Shown here piece after piece: positions 52,636 through 63,152 of a DNA stretch of 64,000 nucleotides (position 1 is its first letter; each line of letters opens with the position of its first letter). A program made the translations under genes and the position numbers. Source of the DNA: a virus; IMG/VR virus record IMGVR_UViG_3300027759_000048; one strand, 5' to 3'. The notes beneath the pieces were generated by a model, which saw nothing but the letters and a program-made list of their open reading frames with translations, did not search any database and was not told the DNA's origin.

Positions 52636-53085
52636 ATGGGTGTTGAGAAAAATCTGTCAGATGCTTTGGGCATCGAACACTTGCCTGTTCCTAAAGAAGA
52701 GGTCAAGAGTGAAGTTATTGAATATGAACCAGTAAGCGATGAAGATGGAGATGAAGATTACCGACTAGTTCGTAATACTTTACGCAATCTCATTGAAAAG
52801 GGCAACGATGCCCTTGAAGACATTTCTACTATCGCCAGACAGAATGAATCCGCACGAGGATTCGAGGTCGTTGCTAATCTTATCAAGACTGTTGGCGAAA
52901 CGTCAAAAGATTTATACAATCTACAAAAGATGAAGCGTGATCTGAAAGAACCAGATCCAGCGGCTGATCCACGTAAGAAGAATGCCGAAAGCATTAACGT
53001 GGAGCAGGCGGTATTCGTAGGTTCAGCGGCAGAGTTATTATCTGCTATCAAGAAACAGAAAGAAGATGGCAAGGACTCCGTTTAG
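52636..53085 (+). CDS. gp16: Terminase small subunit gp16
   Basis: DYRLVRNTL..LIEKG...ARGFEV..LIK; VFVGSAAEL; upstream of gp17. Confidence 0.92.
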   Translation: MGVEKNLSDALGIEHLPVPKEEVKSEVIEYEPVSDEDGDEDYRLVRNTLRNLIEKGNDALEDISTIARQNESARGFEVVANLIKTVGETSKDLYNLQKMKRDLKEPDPAADPRKKNAESINVEQAVFVGSAAELLSAIKKQKEDGKDSV

Positions 53086-54745
53086 TTATCAAAACAATCC
53101 GAATCTGCCTAATGAGCAGTATCGCCATTCGTTTACCCAAGCAGAACTTGATGAATATATCAAGTGTGCTGACGATCCCGTTTACTTTGCCAAGACTTAC
53201 ATCAAAATCATCAACGTCGATAAAGGTCTCATACCATTTGCTATGTGGGACTTTCAGGAACGTATGTTACAGACGTTCCATGATAATCGTTTCTCTATCT
53301 GTAAGCTACCACGACAGGTTGGTAAGTCAACTACAAGTGTGGCATATATTCTTCATCAGGTTCTATTCAACGAAAACTTTGTTGTCGCTATTCTAGCTAA
53401 CCGTGCTCCAACTGCCCGTGAGTTGTTACAGAAACTTAAACTTGCTTTTGAGTATCTACCTATGTTCTTGAAGCAAGGCATCAAAGAATGGAACAAAGGT
53501 TCTATCTATCTTGCTAACGGTTCAAGAGTTCTAGCTGACTCAACATCAGGCTCCTCAGTTCGTGGTTTCTCATTTAACATAATCTTTCTTGATGAGTTTG
53601 CGTTCGTTCCAAACAACATTGCTGAAGAGTTCTTTAATTCAACTTATCCTACTATTTCATCTGGTAAAACATCTAAGGTCGTTATCGTTTCTACACCAAA
53701 TGGAATGAATCTTTTCTACAAGATGTGGCAGAAAGCTATTGACAAGACTAGCACATATCAGCCTATTGAGATCCACTGGTCAATGGTGCCGGGCAGAGAT
53801 GAAGCATGGGCGGCAGAAACTATACGAAACACTAGCCAACGTCAGTTTGACCAAGAGTTTGGTTGTGAGTTCTTAGGTTCATCTAACACACTAATCAGTG
53901 GTGCCAAACTTGCTTCACTACACTGGAAAGAACCAATCACTCGTATGGAGTGTATGGATATCTTTGAGCAACCAGAACACAAACACACATATGTATTGTG
54001 TGCCGATGTTGCTGAAGGGCAGGGACTAGATTACTCCACATTCTCTATCTTTGACGTTACACAAATCCCATATCGCCAGGTAGCTAAATATAGAAATAAC
54101 GAAATTAGCCCGATGCTTCTACCGGCAGTTATCTACTCAGCGGCAAGAAAGTATAATGACGCTTTCGTTCTTATCGAAATCAATTCTATTGGTCTACAGG
54201 TCGCAGACATTCTACACTATGAACTGGCATATGAAAATCTGCTAAAGTTTCAGTTAAAGGGTAAACAGGGTATGCAGGCCTCAGGTGGGTTTGCTGCTGG
54301 TAAGAATAAACTAGCATTTGGTCTCAAAATCACAGCCCAGTCAAAGATGATTGGTTGTGCTAACCTCAAGACGCTAGTTGAGAGTGATAAACTAATACTT
54401 AACGATGAGGATACAATTACAGAGCTATATTCCTTCTCATCAACAAAGAAGACCTTTGCGGCAGAAGAAGGAGCAAACGATGACCTAGCTATGACGCTGG
54501 TTCATTTTGGCTGGTTAACAGCCCAGAAATTGTTCAAAGAAACCGTTTCTAATGACATACGTTATGTTCTACAGAAAGAAATTGCTTATCTTGAAGATGT
54601 AGAAAATGTGCCATTTGGTTTCATTGATAACGGATTAGATGAGGTTGTGGACGAGATAGATGCTAGTGGTGATCGATGGGTTCGTGAAAGAGAACAGCTA
54701 TACCCGTTTGATGATCTTGGATATAAGTGGGACGGTCGGCTATAG
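53066..54745 (+). CDS. gp17: Terminase large subunit gp17
   Basis: PRQVGKST Walker A, IFLDEFAF Walker B, STPNG, DVAEG..LDYS, DDLAM. Confidence 0.97.
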   Translation: MARTPFSYQNNPNLPNEQYRHSFTQAELDEYIKCADDPVYFAKTYIKIINVDKGLIPFAMWDFQERMLQTFHDNRFSICKLPRQVGKSTTSVAYILHQVLFNENFVVAILANRAPTARELLQKLKLAFEYLPMFLKQGIKEWNKGSIYLANGSRVLADSTSGSSVRGFSFNIIFLDEFAFVPNNIAEEFFNSTYPTISSGKTSKVVIVSTPNGMNLFYKMWQKAIDKTSTYQPIEIHWSMVPGRDEAWAAETIRNTSQRQFDQEFGCEFLGSSNTLISGAKLASLHWKEPITRMECMDIFEQPEHKHTYVLCADVAEGQGLDYSTFSIFDVTQIPYRQVAKYRNNEISPMLLPAVIYSAARKYNDAFVLIEINSIGLQVADILHYELAYENLLKFQLKGKQGMQASGGFAAGKNKLAFGLKITAQSKMIGCANLKTLVESDKLILNDEDTITELYSFSSTKKTFAAEEGANDDLAMTLVHFGWLTAQKLFKETVSNDIRYVLQKEIAYLEDVENVPFGFIDNGLDEVVDEIDASGDRWVREREQLYPFDDLGYKWDGRL

Positions 54746-54821: not shown

Positions 54822-56567
54822 ATGGCATATTCACTTTCCCCAGGCGTGACATGGTCCGAAATTGATCTTACGACCGTTGTTCCTGCCGCATCTACTACAG
54901 AAGGGGCATTTGCCGGAAACTTTGATTGGGGTCCTATTGACGAGGTTACTACAATTGCTAATGAGGTTGAACTAGTTCGCTGGTTCGGTCAACCATCAGA
55001 TAATACAGCAGTTTCATTCTTCACCGCAGCTAACTTCTTGGCTTATGGTGATAACCTCAGAGTAGTTCGCTCAGCCAATACATTCGCCGCTAAATGCGCT
55101 ACATCTGGTAACACAGCAGCCCTAGTTAAAAATCGTGACGATTGGGATACCAATTGGGACGTATTCGCTACCAATAGCCCTGCATACGGCATGTTCGCTG
55201 CTCGTTATGCTGGTACACTCGGCAACGAGATTAAAGTTTGCGTGTTTGCTAAAGCAAATGTTAGTTCTTCTGACGCCGATTGGGCAAATTGGGAACAAGC
55301 TGCACAGTTCAATGGTCCTCCAGGAACATCAAAGTATGTTGCCGACCGTGGTGGTGCTAACGACGAAATGCACATTATCGTTCTTGATACCAAAGGTACA
55401 TTCACTGGTGGTATTGCAAACTCAGTTCTTGAAAGATACTCAAACCTTTCAAAAGCAGTTGACGCTACTAATGATGACGGTTCTTCAAACTACTATGCTA
55501 GTGTTATTGCGGACCGTTCAGCATTCCTATGGCCAATCAACCATGCGATTTCTAACACAACTGTTCCTGTTGTTCAAACCTCAACATGGGGTAACACAGC
55601 ATCAGGTGTTCAATTCTCGCAGTCAAATGCTTCATTCAACTTTACATTAGCAGGCGGTGTTCTAGCTACTCCAACTGATGGACAGCTTCAGAATTCCTAT
55701 GTTAAGTTTTCTGATACCGATGCTTACGACACATCATTAATCATGATGGGCGGTTCTTCAAACACCGTTTCTAAGTATATTATCGATAACATTGCTGCTC
55801 CTGGTGGTTCATTTGGTCGTGGCGACGTTGTTGTATTCGTTTCACCACAATACACAGACGTTGTTGATCAACCTGGCTCAGAAGTAACAAAGTCACTTGT
55901 TACAAGAAACTTCTTTGGTTCATCTTCATATGCCTTCATGGACTCAGGATGGAAGAAGCAGTTTGACAAGTATAACAACAAGTATCGTTGGATTCCTCTC
56001 AATGGTGACGTTGCTGGTCTCTGTGCCCGCACCGATCAGACAAGAGATGCTTGGTTCTCACCAGCCGGTCTTAACCGTGGTCAGATCAAGAATGTTACAA
56101 AACTTTCTTGGCAGCCAACAAAGGCTGACAGAGATAACCTCTACAAGAACAACATCAATCCAGTTGTTACATTCAAAGGCGAAGGCACTGTTCTCTATGG
56201 TGATAAAACACTACAGACAAAGCCATCAGCATTTGATCGTATCAATGTTCGTAGATTGTTTATCGTTCTTGAAAAGTCAATCTCAAAGGCAGCTAAGTAT
56301 TCACTCTTTGAGTTCAACGATGAATTTACAAGATCACAATTCGTTGCTCTTGTAGAACCATTCCTACGAGACGTTAAAGGTCGTCGTGGTATCTATGACT
56401 TCCGTGTAGTTTGTGACGAAACAAACAATACACCACAAGTCATCGATAGTAATCAATTCATCGGGGACATTTATGTCAAGCCAGCCCGTTCTATCAACTT
56501 TATTCATCTTAACTTTGTGGCTGTTAGAACTGGTGTTGCCTTCTCCGAAATTGTTGGCAAATTCTAA
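54822..56567 (+). CDS. gp18: Tail sheath protein gp18
   Basis: SPGV..SEIDLT; WFSPAGLNRG; FDRINVRRLF; KPARSINFI.LNFVA. Confidence 0.97.
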   Translation: MAYSLSPGVTWSEIDLTTVVPAASTTEGAFAGNFDWGPIDEVTTIANEVELVRWFGQPSDNTAVSFFTAANFLAYGDNLRVVRSANTFAAKCATSGNTAALVKNRDDWDTNWDVFATNSPAYGMFAARYAGTLGNEIKVCVFAKANVSSSDADWANWEQAAQFNGPPGTSKYVADRGGANDEMHIIVLDTKGTFTGGIANSVLERYSNLSKAVDATNDDGSSNYYASVIADRSAFLWPINHAISNTTVPVVQTSTWGNTASGVQFSQSNASFNFTLAGGVLATPTDGQLQNSYVKFSDTDAYDTSLIMMGGSSNTVSKYIIDNIAAPGGSFGRGDVVVFVSPQYTDVVDQPGSEVTKSLVTRNFFGSSSYAFMDSGWKKQFDKYNNKYRWIPLNGDVAGLCARTDQTRDAWFSPAGLNRGQIKNVTKLSWQPTKADRDNLYKNNINPVVTFKGEGTVLYGDKTLQTKPSAFDRINVRRLFIVLEKSISKAAKYSLFEFNDEFTRSQFVALVEPFLRDVKGRRGIYDFRVVCDETNNTPQVIDSNQFIGDIYVKPARSINFIHLNFVAVRTGVAFSEIVGKF

Positions 56568-56594: not shown

Positions 56595-57152
56595 ATGGCT
56601 TTTAATGTCAATCAATTTAGAGCAACACTAGTAAACGACGGCGCTCGTCCAAGTTTATTTGAAGTTGTAATGGCTCTACCACCAATTCTTGGTGCTGCGC
56701 CATTGACCCCAGATGTCATCTTCAGAGTGAGGGCAACCTCACTCCCAGGTGATGGTGTTTCATCAATCAGTGTTCCTTATTTCGGTCGTGAAATCAAGAT
56801 CGCCGGAACAAGAACATTCCCAGATTGGTCATTCACAATCATCAATGATGAAAACTTTGTTGCCCGTAGAAACTTAGAAACATGGCTAAACCTAATCAAT
56901 GGTCACGTTTCTAACCTTCGTGCTCCACAGGCTCTAGCAGCGTTCTCATATCAATCAGACGCATTAGTAACACAGTTTAGTAAAGCTGGTCCTCCAATCA
57001 AGTCATACAAGATTGTTGGTTGCTTTCCTACTGATGTTGCTCCAATTGAACTTGATTGGGGACTAGGCGATCAGATCGAAGAATACGGTGTTACACTCGC
57101 CTATCAATGGTGGGAAGCACTCGACGGTTCTACAGATATTTCTGGCGCTTAA
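56595..57152 (+). CDS. gp19: Tail tube protein gp19
   Basis: GARPSLFEV; VPYFGREIKIAGTRTF.DW; IEEYGVTLAYQWW. Confidence 0.95.
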   Translation: MAFNVNQFRATLVNDGARPSLFEVVMALPPILGAAPLTPDVIFRVRATSLPGDGVSSISVPYFGREIKIAGTRTFPDWSFTIINDENFVARRNLETWLNLINGHVSNLRAPQALAAFSYQSDALVTQFSKAGPPIKSYKIVGCFPTDVAPIELDWGLGDQIEEYGVTLAYQWWEALDGSTDISGA

Positions 57153-57159
57153 TAGCTAG

Positions 57160-57200
57160 ACTAAATACTAGACATTCCATGGGGCTACGGTCCCATGGAA
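57160..57200 (+). promoter_or_regulatory. Late promoter variant ACTAAATA plus C(UACG)G tetraloop hairpin upstream of gp20
   Basis: TTCCATGGGGC-TACG-GTCCCATGGAA (57175-57200): 11-bp stem with one G-U pair. Confidence 0.7.
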
Positions 57201-57228
57201 CTTTCATCATGTTCAAGGAGTAACGACC

Positions 57229-59115
57229 ATTCGTTTATTTGGCTTTCAGATAGGTGCCGACGATCAGGATAAGAAACCAGATCAATACGGTCAACCAACA
57301 CAAAAGACATTTGCTATACCGCAGACAGACGATGGTGCTGTTACGGTTGCAGGTGCTGGCTATTATGGTACATATGTTGATCTCGATGGTACGTTTAGAA
57401 ACGAAACACAACTTATCACAAAGTATCGTGAACTTGCTATTCAACCTGAAATGGAAACTGCTATTGACGAAATCGTCAATGAAGCAATCGTTATTGAGGA
57501 CTCTGGCACATCCGTAGAAATCAATATGGATGAAGTCAAAGCTCCACCTGCTATTAAGAAAAAGATCGAAGACGAATTTAACCTACTACTAAAGATGTTG
57601 AACTTCGGTAACATGGGTCACGACATCTTTCGTCGTTGGTATGTTGATGGTAGATTATACTATCACCTTGTTATCGATGAGCTTAATCCAGCAATGGGTG
57701 TTCAGGAGATCAAGTATATTGATCCTCGTCGTATTCGCAAGATACGTGAAATCCAAAAGATGCGTGATCCTCAAACAGGTATTGAGTTGATCAAAAAGAC
57801 AATTGAATACTATCTCTATAATGAAAAAGGTATGGTCGGCGCTGGTGCTAATCTTGGTGCTAAGATTGCCGTCGATTCCGTTGTCAACGTAAACTCAGGT
57901 ATCATGGATCCAAAACAGACCATGGTGCTTTCATACTTACACAAAGCAATCAAACCATTTAACAATCTACGCATGGTAGAGGACGCAACTGTTATCTATC
58001 GTCTAAGCCGTGCTCCTGAGCGTAGAGTTTTCTATATCGACGTTGGTAACATGCCAACAGTTAAAGCGGAACAGTATGTCCGTGATATCATGGTTAAGTA
58101 TCGTAACAAACTAGTTTACGATAGTAATACTGGTGAGATCAAAGACGACCGCAAACATCTATCAATGCTAGAAGATTTCTGGTTGCCACGCCGTGAAGGT
58201 TCTAAAGGAACTGAAATCTCTACACTAGAAGGCGCACGTAATCTAGGTGAAATGGAAGACGTTAAGTATTTCCAAAGTAAACTATACAAGTCACTCAATG
58301 TTCCTATTGGTCGTCTAGAACCTCAGCAAGGCTTCTCACTTGGTCGTTCAACAGAAATTACCAGAGACGAAATCAAGTTCAATAAGTTTGTTCAAAGACT
58401 ACGCAATAAGTTTTCATCACTCTTTGATGATCTTCTTCGTGTTCAACTCATTCTCAAGAATGTATGTACCGAAGAAGAGTGGAAAGAGTTTAAAGAAGAC
58501 ATTTGGTATGACTATAAGAAAGACAATAACTTTGATGAACTAAAAGACGCCGAACTATTATCAATGCGTCTCGATACACTTATTAAAGTTGATCCATTCG
58601 TTGGTAAGTATTACAGTGTTGAATGGGTTCGTAAGAACATTCTACAGCAAACCGACGAAGATATGGAAGAGATCAACGCACAGATGGAACAAGAGAATGC
58701 TGTTCTAGCACAGCAACAGCAACAAGCAATGGTTGATCAGCAGGTTCAACAACAGCAAGATATGCAGAACCAAATTGAGTTTGGTGCTCAACAGCAAATT
58801 GCTCAGGCTATAACACAAAAAGAAGTTGACAAGATTACTGGACCAGATCAAGGTCAAGGTAAATCAGAAAAAGCAAATCAAAGCCATGAAACTAAAATCA
58901 TGGATAAGAAGATTGAACTAGAACGTATCAAGGCAAGCAAAGGCGCTCCTAAGAAACCAGAGAAGAAGCCTGCTGCTAAGAAGAAGACTGTGGCAGAAGA
59001 AGCCAAAGATATGGGACTAGTGTATATCGGCAACGGTCGTTATGCTGATCGTTCTGGTAGTGTTACACATCTAAATGAAAATGGTATATTGTTACCATAC
59101 ATAAATAAGGATTAA
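57229..59115 (+). CDS. gp20: Portal protein gp20, predicted ATT start
   Basis: Conserved N-terminus (RLFGFQI...DDGA...YVDLDG...LITKYR) lies in frame upstream of ATG 57451; AAGGAG is 8 nt before ATT 57229; YRLSRAPERRVFYIDVGN and EDFWLPRREG motifs. Confidence 0.93.
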   Translation: MRLFGFQIGADDQDKKPDQYGQPTQKTFAIPQTDDGAVTVAGAGYYGTYVDLDGTFRNETQLITKYRELAIQPEMETAIDEIVNEAIVIEDSGTSVEINMDEVKAPPAIKKKIEDEFNLLLKMLNFGNMGHDIFRRWYVDGRLYYHLVIDELNPAMGVQEIKYIDPRRIRKIREIQKMRDPQTGIELIKKTIEYYLYNEKGMVGAGANLGAKIAVDSVVNVNSGIMDPKQTMVLSYLHKAIKPFNNLRMVEDATVIYRLSRAPERRVFYIDVGNMPTVKAEQYVRDIMVKYRNKLVYDSNTGEIKDDRKHLSMLEDFWLPRREGSKGTEISTLEGARNLGEMEDVKYFQSKLYKSLNVPIGRLEPQQGFSLGRSTEITRDEIKFNKFVQRLRNKFSSLFDDLLRVQLILKNVCTEEEWKEFKEDIWYDYKKDNNFDELKDAELLSMRLDTLIKVDPFVGKYYSVEWVRKNILQQTDEDMEEINAQMEQENAVLAQQQQQAMVDQQVQQQQDMQNQIEFGAQQQIAQAITQKEVDKITGPDQGQGKSEKANQSHETKIMDKKIELERIKASKGAPKKPEKKPAAKKKTVAEEAKDMGLVYIGNGRYADRSGSVTHLNENGILLPYINKD

Positions 59116-59118
59116 GAT

Positions 59119-59937
59119 TTGTCTAAAGGTCTTGCTAGTGTTAAGACACTAACAGCAAAACAGATTGCGGATAAGTGGAAGCTACCTTTATCAGTAGTGG
59201 CAAAGAAGATTGCTGCTGGAGTCAAGGTAGAGAAAGAACACACTACAAGCACAAGACAAGCTAACGAGATTGCAAGAGACCATCTTGGTGAAAGACCAGA
59301 TTACTATGATAAACTTGACAAGATGGAAAAAACAAAGATTGTAAAAGAGAATACAACTGTTACTGCTGGTATTGGTGGTTTAGGATTCAATACAGGAACA
59401 CCTGCAATTGATGCCGACAATCAATACATAGATACTAATTCCATGTCATATGAAGATTGGAATGGTGCTATACTAAAGATGATCAAAGACAAACATCATA
59501 ATCATCTTATTGATATGGGCTTTACATCATATTCACCTAATGATATACAGACCGCTTCTAACAAAATTGTTAAAGAAGCAAAACATCCATTACAAGCTAA
59601 CTATGATAAGTATAGAAAAGGTGAACTAAACGAACTTGGTGAGTATGATAACAAAGGTGGTATGTCAGGTTACGAAGGTACATCAGGTCCTATAGGCAAC
59701 AAACCCGACTTGATTGTGGATAGAGGCGGTGAAAAGGGTCAAACAAAATACGGTCAACAATTCAAAGAGGAAACTAAAATGGACAATAAAGAACTTATCA
59801 ACGAGGCTCTTGATTGTATCCTTGAAGATAATCTTCCAGAAATGAAAGATAATCTTATGAAGGCTCTACAAGAGAAAGCTATGGAAAAGTTGGAAGAGCG
59901 TAAGAAAGAAATCGCTGCCAACTACTTTGCACAGTAA
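59119..59937 (+). CDS. Prohead internal protein: DUF5661-like N-terminal domain fused to a gp67-like C-terminus (TTG start)
   Basis: GVKVEKEHT...EIARDHL.E.PDYYDKL; C-terminal ..KAMEKLEERKKEIAANYF; directly after the portal gene. Confidence 0.7.
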   Translation: MSKGLASVKTLTAKQIADKWKLPLSVVAKKIAAGVKVEKEHTTSTRQANEIARDHLGERPDYYDKLDKMEKTKIVKENTTVTAGIGGLGFNTGTPAIDADNQYIDTNSMSYEDWNGAILKMIKDKHHNHLIDMGFTSYSPNDIQTASNKIVKEAKHPLQANYDKYRKGELNELGEYDNKGGMSGYEGTSGPIGNKPDLIVDRGGEKGQTKYGQQFKEETKMDNKELINEALDCILEDNLPEMKDNLMKALQEKAMEKLEERKKEIAANYFAQ

Positions 59938-62504: not shown

Positions 62505-63152
62505 ATGAAACTTATTAGAGAAGAAATACAAGACGTTCAATACTTAGTAGAAGCCGATGGTAAAGGTGGCAAGAACCACTTTATCACTGGCATCTTCATG
62601 CAGGCTGAAAAGCAGAACCGTAACGGTCGTGTATATCCTATGAATGTGCTTTCAAAAGAAGCATCAAGATATAACACCGAGTATGTTGCTAAGAACAGAG
62701 CATTTGGTGAACTAGGTCATCCAGAGAATCCTCAAATCAATCTAGACAGAGTTTCGCATATGATCACCAAGTTATATGCTGATGGTACTAACTTTATTGG
62801 TAAAGCAAAGATTATGGATACTCCTAATGGTAAGATTGTTAAGAGCTTACTAGATGGTGGTGCAAGTCTTGGTGTGTCGACCAGAGGCGTAGGGTCTCTT
62901 CGTCCACACAATGGATATCAACAAGTCCAAGACGATTTCAAGTTGGCTACAGCGGCAGACATTGTAGCAGATCCAAGCGCACCAGACGCATTTGTGCAGG
63001 GCATTATGGAAGGCAAAGAGTGGGTTTTTGAGAATGGTAAGTGGAAAGAGCAAGAATATTATCATGCTAAGAAACTTATATCAGAAGCCTCAAAGAGTGA
63101 AATTGAGTCAGTGGCTCTACGAATTTTTGAAAATTACATTTCAAAACTTTGA
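62505..63152 (+). CDS. gp21: Prohead protease gp21
   Basis: GIFMQAE.QNRNGRVYP; GELGHP; GVSTRGVGS; DIVADPSAPDAFV. Confidence 0.97.
   Translation: MKLIREEIQDVQYLVEADGKGGKNHFITGIFMQAEKQNRNGRVYPMNVLSKEASRYNTEYVAKNRAFGELGHPENPQINLDRVSHMITKLYADGTNFIGKAKIMDTPNGKIVKSLLDGGASLGVSTRGVGSLRPHNGYQQVQDDFKLATAADIVADPSAPDAFVQGIMEGKEWVFENGKWKEQEYYHAKKLISEASKSEIESVALRIFENYISKL

Follow-up and report, generated by a model that had tools for sequence, protein, structure and literature searches.

The portal protein gene (gp20) of an uncultured T4-like phage clade almost certainly starts at AUU

Escherichia coli uses AUU as the initiation codon of infC (IF3) and pcnB (poly(A) polymerase) (PMC3592434, PMC5499595). 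Compared with AUG, the AUU codon yields 6-8 times less in a reporter or standard context, a deficit that is 4-fold in the context of infC (PMC3592434). IF3 discriminates against messages starting with AUU, which are also poor competitors when the temperature is low, nutrients are limiting or ppGpp is present (PMC5499595). For phages, ATT is listed as an alternative start codon in the Phage Annotation Guide (PMC8785237). Prohead assembly is nucleated by the portal protein, gp20 in T4, of which each head needs 12 copies (PMC9958956). Nothing specific on an ATT-started g20 portal gene in T4-like phages was found in the literature searched.

The DNA analysed here is a stretch of 64 kb (the window). 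It represents the minus strand of an IMG/VR viral record 81 kb long and ~46% complete. No close cultured relative was found by DNA. The window contains an open reading frame matching the Pfam family Portal_T4 (PF07230) over residues 60-489, with an E value of 3.2e-175 and 583 bits against a cut-off of 22.9. The solved T4 gp20 structures 6uzc, 9lu6 and 3ja7 match with E values of 1e-113 to 8e-114, and residues 48-493 of the query align with residues 61-512 of T4 gp20. Past the T4-homologous region there is a C-terminal extension of ~135 residues rich in Q and K. In a tblastn search, the Pelagibacter phages Mosig and HTVC008M, the Methylophilales phage Melnitz and many cyanophages matched with 51-57% identity; the top identity to any cultured phage is 56-58%. 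Judged by these matches, the reading frame is a member of the T4-type portal protein (gp20; PF07230) family. The order terminase, sheath, tube, portal, head-core, prohead protease (Table 1) is the same in Mosig, Melnitz, S-MbCM7 and HTVC008M. The window thus shares with T4 gp20 and the cultured Kyanoviridae-type homologues (Mosig, Melnitz, HTVC008M and cyanophages) the protein family, the sheath-tube-portal synteny and an N-terminus of the type M-x-x-LFGF.

Table 1. Features of the portal gene region, in window coordinates.
Feature	Position	Strand	Basis or remark
Large terminase gene	53066-54745	+	Pfam
Tail sheath gene	54822-56567	+	Pfam
Tail tube gene	56595-57152	+	Pfam; stop codon at 57150-57152
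Late-promoter-like CTAAATA (T4/cyanophage-type xTAAATA)	57161-57167	+	Between the tube stop codon and the hairpin
Hairpin, 11-bp stem TTCCATGGGGC / GTCCCATGGAA, UACG (UNCG) loop	57175-57200	+	RNA MFE and centroid fold
Mini-ORF ATG TTC AAG GAG TAA (MFKE, then stop)	57209-57223	+	Overlaps the Shine-Dalgarno site; out of the portal frame; significance uncertain
Shine-Dalgarno AAGGAG	57215-57220	+	Read from sequence; 8 nt 5' of the start
ATT (AUU), almost certain initiation codon of the portal gene	57229-57231	+	Comparative evidence
Portal protein gene, gp20 type	57229-59115	+	628 codons plus TAA stop
Internal Met codon used as start by gene callers	57451-57453	+	Gives a 554-aa product
Head-core genes		+	Pfam; 3' of the portal gene
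Prohead protease gene	62505-63152	+	Pfam

On the plus strand, the TAG at 57169-57171 is in frame with the ATG at 57451, and none of the 93 codons separating the two is ATG, GTG or TTG. The reading frame taken from 57229 encodes IRLFGFQIGADD...DDGAVTV...YVDLDGTFRNETQLITKYRELAIQPE before it reaches the Met at 57451. The AAGGAG is separated from the ATT by the 8-nt spacer TAACGACC, inside the range of 5-10 nt at which such sites function. The N-terminus would accordingly read (M)RLFGFQIGADDQDK from an AUU start and METAIDEIV from ATG 57451. A start-less leader of such length is unique to the portal among the gene-sized plus-strand ORFs of the window. The others have a canonical start at most 29 codons past the upstream stop, except one short overlapping ORF with 38 codons. 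Being the only such case, the portal leader points to more than chance. The original prediction, drawn from the sequence by eye, had held that the frame lacks ATG, GTG and TTG between TAG and ATG 57451 and that AAGGAG sits 8 nt before the ATT; codon reading confirmed both. It had also proposed that initiation takes place at this ATT and that the 74 codons from there are the portal N-terminus. The comparative evidence below strongly supports the one, and homology and selection bear out the other.

The tblastn matches to Kyanoviridae-type portals start at query residue 2-3, counted from the ATT. The annotated portals of the matched cultured phages begin with MAELFGF, MSQLFGF or (GTG)AEFFGF, and the window N-terminus counted in the same way is (ATT)RLFGFQI. 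The motifs LFGF, DDGA and LITKYREL are conserved as far as the cultured phages. In the four cultured relatives whose start regions were read, the gene starts with ATG, or with GTG in HTVC008M, whereas the window has ATT. Among members of the ATT-bearing clade, dN/dS over codons 2-74 is 0.04-0.08 and equally low over the remainder of the gene, and synonymous sites are saturated (dS >1). Since dN/dS stays this low at such divergence, the N-terminal 74 codons are, on this measure, translated and under constraint.

The start region was then aligned in related genomes. Searching IMG/VR with the protein as guide gave 80 related loci, in which the codon aligned to the ATT was read. The three closest (L005, L006 and L021, 87-89% identical in protein) carry ATT preceded by AAGGAG or CAGGAG. 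In the contigs next in relatedness the identical aligned codon is GTG (11 contigs) or TTG (2-3 contigs), with AAGGA at the same spacing, and more distant contigs have ATG 2-5 codons 5' of LFGF. DNA patterns open at the start gave the same codon. With the start codon and the preceding base left as N, 18 of 18 IMG/VR contigs, coming from many samples, had ATT. With seven bases left open at the start, so did 4 of 4 contigs of the metagenome collection. Three further assemblies (ENA, JGI 3300061645 and JGI 3300046777), locally ~98% identical to the window, all have ATT as well. In total, ATT is found in the window and in 25/25 other contigs recovered for the sub-clade from IMG/VR, JGI, ENA and NCBI metagenomes, and no ATG revertant occurs among these 25. 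A G/T error at 57231, by which an ATG had been misread as ATT, is excluded, given that ~25 independent contigs agree.

The frame upstream of the ATT leaves few other places to start. Most ATT contigs, including L005, L006 and L021, have an in-frame stop 4-5 codons 5' of the ATT, and in these three the next canonical start comes only at codon 68-74. The open codons between the stop and the ATT are GGA GTA GGG ACC, or ACA GGA GTA ACG ACA in L021. Among the codons common to all ATT contigs between the upstream stop and FFGF, ATT alone is one position off AUG. The other near-cognate codon, ACG, present in L021 and the window (57223), occupies the position at which distant relatives have their ATG. 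It was rejected as a start, since it comes only 2 nt past the Shine-Dalgarno site and most ATT contigs have GGG there. Likewise, ATA 57250 (or ATC) at codon 8 would lie 29 nt from the Shine-Dalgarno site, and the conserved LFGF would be lost. This Ile codon 8 varies between ATA, ATC and ATT among sequences in which codon 1 is always ATT. In these alignments the ATT behaves as a constrained signal, unlike an ordinary Ile codon. Taken together, the portal gene almost certainly begins at the rare and weak start codon ATT 57229, and its first residue would be fMet.

A tree of 84 portals (quick IQ-TREE) places all ATT sequences in one clade with an SH-aLRT support of 98. This clade is nested in a larger one of 26 sequences (support 100), whose other members start with GTG (11) or TTG (2). 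The single exception is L018, basal in the larger clade, with an ATG start and a 22-residue basic N-terminal extension. The avoidance of ATG for the portal by all but L018 suggests a sustained preference for weak starts. The AUU would have had a single origin: the start codon in the surrounding clade was non-AUG (GUG/UUG) beforehand, and a substitution in it gave AUU. It would then have been retained through long divergence along with a strengthened Shine-Dalgarno site.

The predicted duplex of the portal AAGGAG with the anti-Shine-Dalgarno sequence is -8.0 kcal/mol, which ranks 5 of 46 genes in the window, in the class of the sheath and tube genes. By this rank, a weak codon is paired with a top-tier ribosome-binding site. 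Predicted values in the ATT clade range from -8.0 to -8.8 kcal/mol (-6.9 in L021); those of the GTG/TTG sisters are -5.3 to -5.6 kcal/mol (-7.5 in one of them, L015), and the median of the ATG-start relatives is -5.9 kcal/mol. The ATT clade is thus ~2.5-3 kcal/mol stronger than its sister clade. The motif is kept as (A/C/G)AGGAG in the ATT clade, versus AAGGA in almost all GTG/TTG sisters. The strong site looks like compensation for the weak codon more than plain throttling. As ATT arose once in the tree, its association with a stronger Shine-Dalgarno site and with an upstream ATG (see below) counts as a single event.

Further elements precede the portal. The motif [ACT]TAAATA, which we take to match the T4-type late promoter TATAAATA, has 25 copies on the plus strand of the window and one on the minus strand, mostly 14-70 nt 5' of gene starts. 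The sheath and tube genes also have copies of their own (54766 and 56567). In nearly all members of the clade, whether they start with ATT, GTG or TTG, a (C/A)TAAATA lies 7-14 nt 5' of the hairpin. All clade members have a hairpin at this position; the stem sequences differ, and double-sided compensatory changes are found in 4 of 8 consensus pairs. These features point to a late promoter of the portal's own (CTAAATA), and the hairpin probably forms the 5' end of the portal mRNA as a stem-loop and probably stabilises it. A role of the hairpin as a terminator attenuating read-through from the tube gene was rejected: it was not flagged as an intrinsic terminator, it is without a T tail, and the promoter motif lies 5' of it.

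The best account of these data can be put as follows. The portal mRNA of this uncultured myovirus probably begins at its own late promoter and carries the stable 5' hairpin. The 30S subunit would be positioned by the AAGGAG, and the initiator tRNA would read the near-cognate AUU at 57229. Initiation of this 12-copy protein, which nucleates prohead assembly, would most likely be moderately reduced and sensitive to IF3. For this explanation as a whole, comprising the AUU start, the Shine-Dalgarno positioning, the portal's own promoter and hairpin, the single origin and the reduced IF3-sensitive initiation, we estimate a probability of roughly 0.88 from the sequence comparisons.

How far the AUU lowers the output, and what regulatory use it may have, is judged here by analogy with E. 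coli. It had been argued at the outset that the AUU limits a 12-copy portal encoded downstream of the high-copy sheath and tube genes. Reduced or conditional initiation would be a reasonable purpose, because the portal is needed in 12 copies per head and nucleates proheads. The positional part fares less well. With its own CTAAATA motif and hairpin the portal is no simple passenger on sheath and tube transcripts, and its Shine-Dalgarno site is among the strongest. The strong site and the probable promoter weaken the idea of a simple throttle and suggest that the loss is partly compensated. Coupling to host IF3 levels is plausible from the E. coli work. A special tRNA or IF3 encoded by the phage to serve the AUU was rejected, as no tRNA gene was found in the window and no IF3 homologue (IF3_C) was matched in the 81-kb record at its ~46% completeness.

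The reading that comes closest in strength leaves the AUU start in place and differs only on what it means. An ATG (or GTG) may have drifted to ATT and become frozen, with the stronger Shine-Dalgarno site compensating and without any regulatory role. The single origin of ATT fits such an accident. So does the gain in Shine-Dalgarno strength over the sister clade, into the class of the abundant sheath and tube, and GTG and TTG were already tolerated among the sisters. Against it, one T-to-G change would suffice to restore ATG, yet none of the 25 other contigs has reverted in spite of saturated synonymous sites, and the wider clade, L018 excepted, also avoids ATG for this gene. We regard a frozen, compensated substitution as a serious alternative for what the AUU means, with somewhat less than an even chance of being right, though not as a challenge to AUU as the start.

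At the other extreme, the AUU, the top-strength Shine-Dalgarno site and the 5' hairpin could together form a sensor that gates portal synthesis by the physiology of the freshwater host. Initiation at AUU tracks the IF3-to-ribosome ratio, ppGpp and temperature, and through these portal synthesis would be gated. If so, the timing and the number of heads started would be set in this way, since the portal nucleates every prohead. This extension of the E. coli analogy appears unlikely.

A third mechanism, termination followed by reinitiation, is suggested by the mini-ORF. In every ATT-clade contig an ATG lies 17-20 nt before the ATT, and it is absent from the close GTG/TTG sisters. The mini-ORF would be translated from ATG 57209 to the TAA at 57221-57223, and ribosomes would restart at the AUU 5 nt on, as in thrS-infC, where the infC AUU gains about two-fold by coupling (PMC3592434). 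Across the clade the mini-ORF stop lies at most 11 nt from the ATT or overlaps it. However, no Shine-Dalgarno site serves the mini-ORF ATG, which lies 9 nt past a very stable hairpin. Frame, length and stop position of the mini-ORF vary between contigs, as in L005 (ATG TTT TAA) and L021 (a 9-codon ORF overlapping the ATT). ATG..GGAG strings also precede the ordinary ATG starts of more distant relatives, and the AUU has a well-spaced AAGGAG of its own. Reinitiation is judged unlikely.

A true start at ATG 57451, with the 74 upstream codons as an untranslated leader or a decaying remnant, is very improbable. This ATG is the first canonical start in frame, and the dodecamer structure 3ja7 was solved from a T4 gp20 construct that, going by the offsets in the alignment, is without the first ~70 residues (455 residues versus 524 at full length). 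But such a start would cut 15 positions from the front of the Pfam Portal_T4 domain and lose the constrained codons 2-74 and the motifs that are shared with the cultured phages. The sequence 5' of the ATG, AACTTGCTATTCAACCTGAA, holds no Shine-Dalgarno site. Met75 is not conserved either, as close relatives read QPE-M/V/T/A-E.

Just as hard to credit are a sequencing or assembly error for ATG, with ATT identical in 25 other contigs of independent assemblies; frameshifting or readthrough from an upstream ATG (57209 in the window), which is in frame but separated by a stop in L005 and out of frame elsewhere, so that the frame relation varies between contigs; and the scar of a decayed homing endonuclease gene that took away the original ATG, to which L043 lends some colour by an unannotated 215-aa ORF that lies between tube and portal and overlaps the portal ATG, but which would have to leave the distance from tube to portal about equal (122-138 nt with ATT, 120-140 nt among the GTG/TTG sisters) and preserve both the order and the relative placement of promoter motif, hairpin and Shine-Dalgarno site. 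The matching spacing and order argue that no foreign DNA was inserted at the ATT. Pfam and PHROG scans of the inserted ORFs of L043 and L040 gave no match.

The portal AUU resembles those of infC and pcnB in several respects. In all of them a conserved AUU follows a Shine-Dalgarno site, the protein is wanted in limited amounts, and the AUU is phylogenetically conserved rather than sporadic. They differ in that the portal is a late structural gene of a phage without an autoregulatory loop, IF3 being a host protein, and in having a top-tier Shine-Dalgarno site and a 5' hairpin ahead of its AUU. Among the Ile-codon starts of phages (ATT, ATC and ATA; PMC8785237) it is likewise a rare non-canonical start, and in the window it is confined to the portal gene. 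AUU starts are known but uncommon, and on the comparisons made here the portal is a further, well-documented case of the infC/pcnB type. Its codon can be traced to a sister clade using GTG and TTG.

The practical consequences lie in annotation. The gene was expected to be truncated by gene callers, and it is: the protein collection lists a 554-aa product that begins at ATG 57451, and three independent assemblies call the portal at this ATG, so that gene callers blind to ATT leave a false intergenic gap of 298 nt after the tube gene. The portal gene (g20) is a standard phylogenetic marker, and it is recorded 74 residues too short across an uncultured T4-like clade. The value of the finding is thus practical, for the annotation of a widely used marker gene, and moderate to low for mechanism. 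For the phages themselves, the locus is a clean natural case of an essential virion gene whose Ile-codon start has persisted while synonymous sites diverged to saturation. The history of this start can be traced from a GTG/TTG-using clade to ATT, and the Shine-Dalgarno site became stronger with the change. The principle of weak starts is already known; this clade may provide material for asking whether such starts tune the dose of assembly initiators.

The motif [ACT]TAAATA occurs 25 times on the plus strand of the window and once on the minus strand, and across the whole window the majority of copies lie 14–70 nt upstream of gene starts. The exact form TATAAATA is found six times, always on the plus strand and always at a gene boundary. 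[ACT]TAAATA, which we take to be comparable to the T4-type late promoter TATAAATA, is probably the late-promoter motif of this phage.

Features in the window and in a related locus
Feature	Location	Remarks
[ACT]TAAATA, examples	window 8543, 16794, 19509, 33514, 48987, 54766, 56567, 57161, 59101, 62480	
DUF5661-containing gene	window 59119-59937	next after portal; start codon TTG
Unannotated ORF, 215 aa	L043:279-926 (IMGVR_UViG_3300043446_000101)	inserted between tube and portal genes

The loop of the hairpin predicted at the 5′ end of the portal mRNA reads UACG in the window (57186-57189). Nearly all of the close relatives compared (L104-L106, L005 and others) carry UUCG. Both are UNCG tetraloops; in more distant members of the clade the loop is GAAA or longer.

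In L043, a relative with an ATG start, the stop codon of the inserted ORF overlaps the portal ATG (ATGA). The ORF, which had no match in Pfam or PHROGs, may be a mobile gene of homing-endonuclease-like type that sits on the portal start. L018 (IMGVR_UViG_3300042988_000042), basal in the GTG/TTG/ATT clade, also starts its portal with ATG, and a basic N-terminal extension of 22 residues (MMAKHPKKSKRSRSADSEQLDEQ) precedes the LYGF motif (L018:1432-1500). A further locus, L040, holds about 550 nt of additional DNA between the tube and portal genes, at the same site as the L043 insertion.

At its C-terminus the window portal extends about 135 residues past the region homologous to T4 gp20 (58700-59115, residues about 495–628). 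In the extension, low-complexity Gln-rich and Lys-rich stretches precede a short tail that appears to be globular (…GLVYIGNGRYADRSGSVTHLNENG…). At the gene junction (59101-59121), the promoter-like motif of the DUF5661-containing gene, CATAAATA, falls within the final portal codons. The Shine-Dalgarno site of this gene is AAGGA, and its start codon is a further weak start in the head module.
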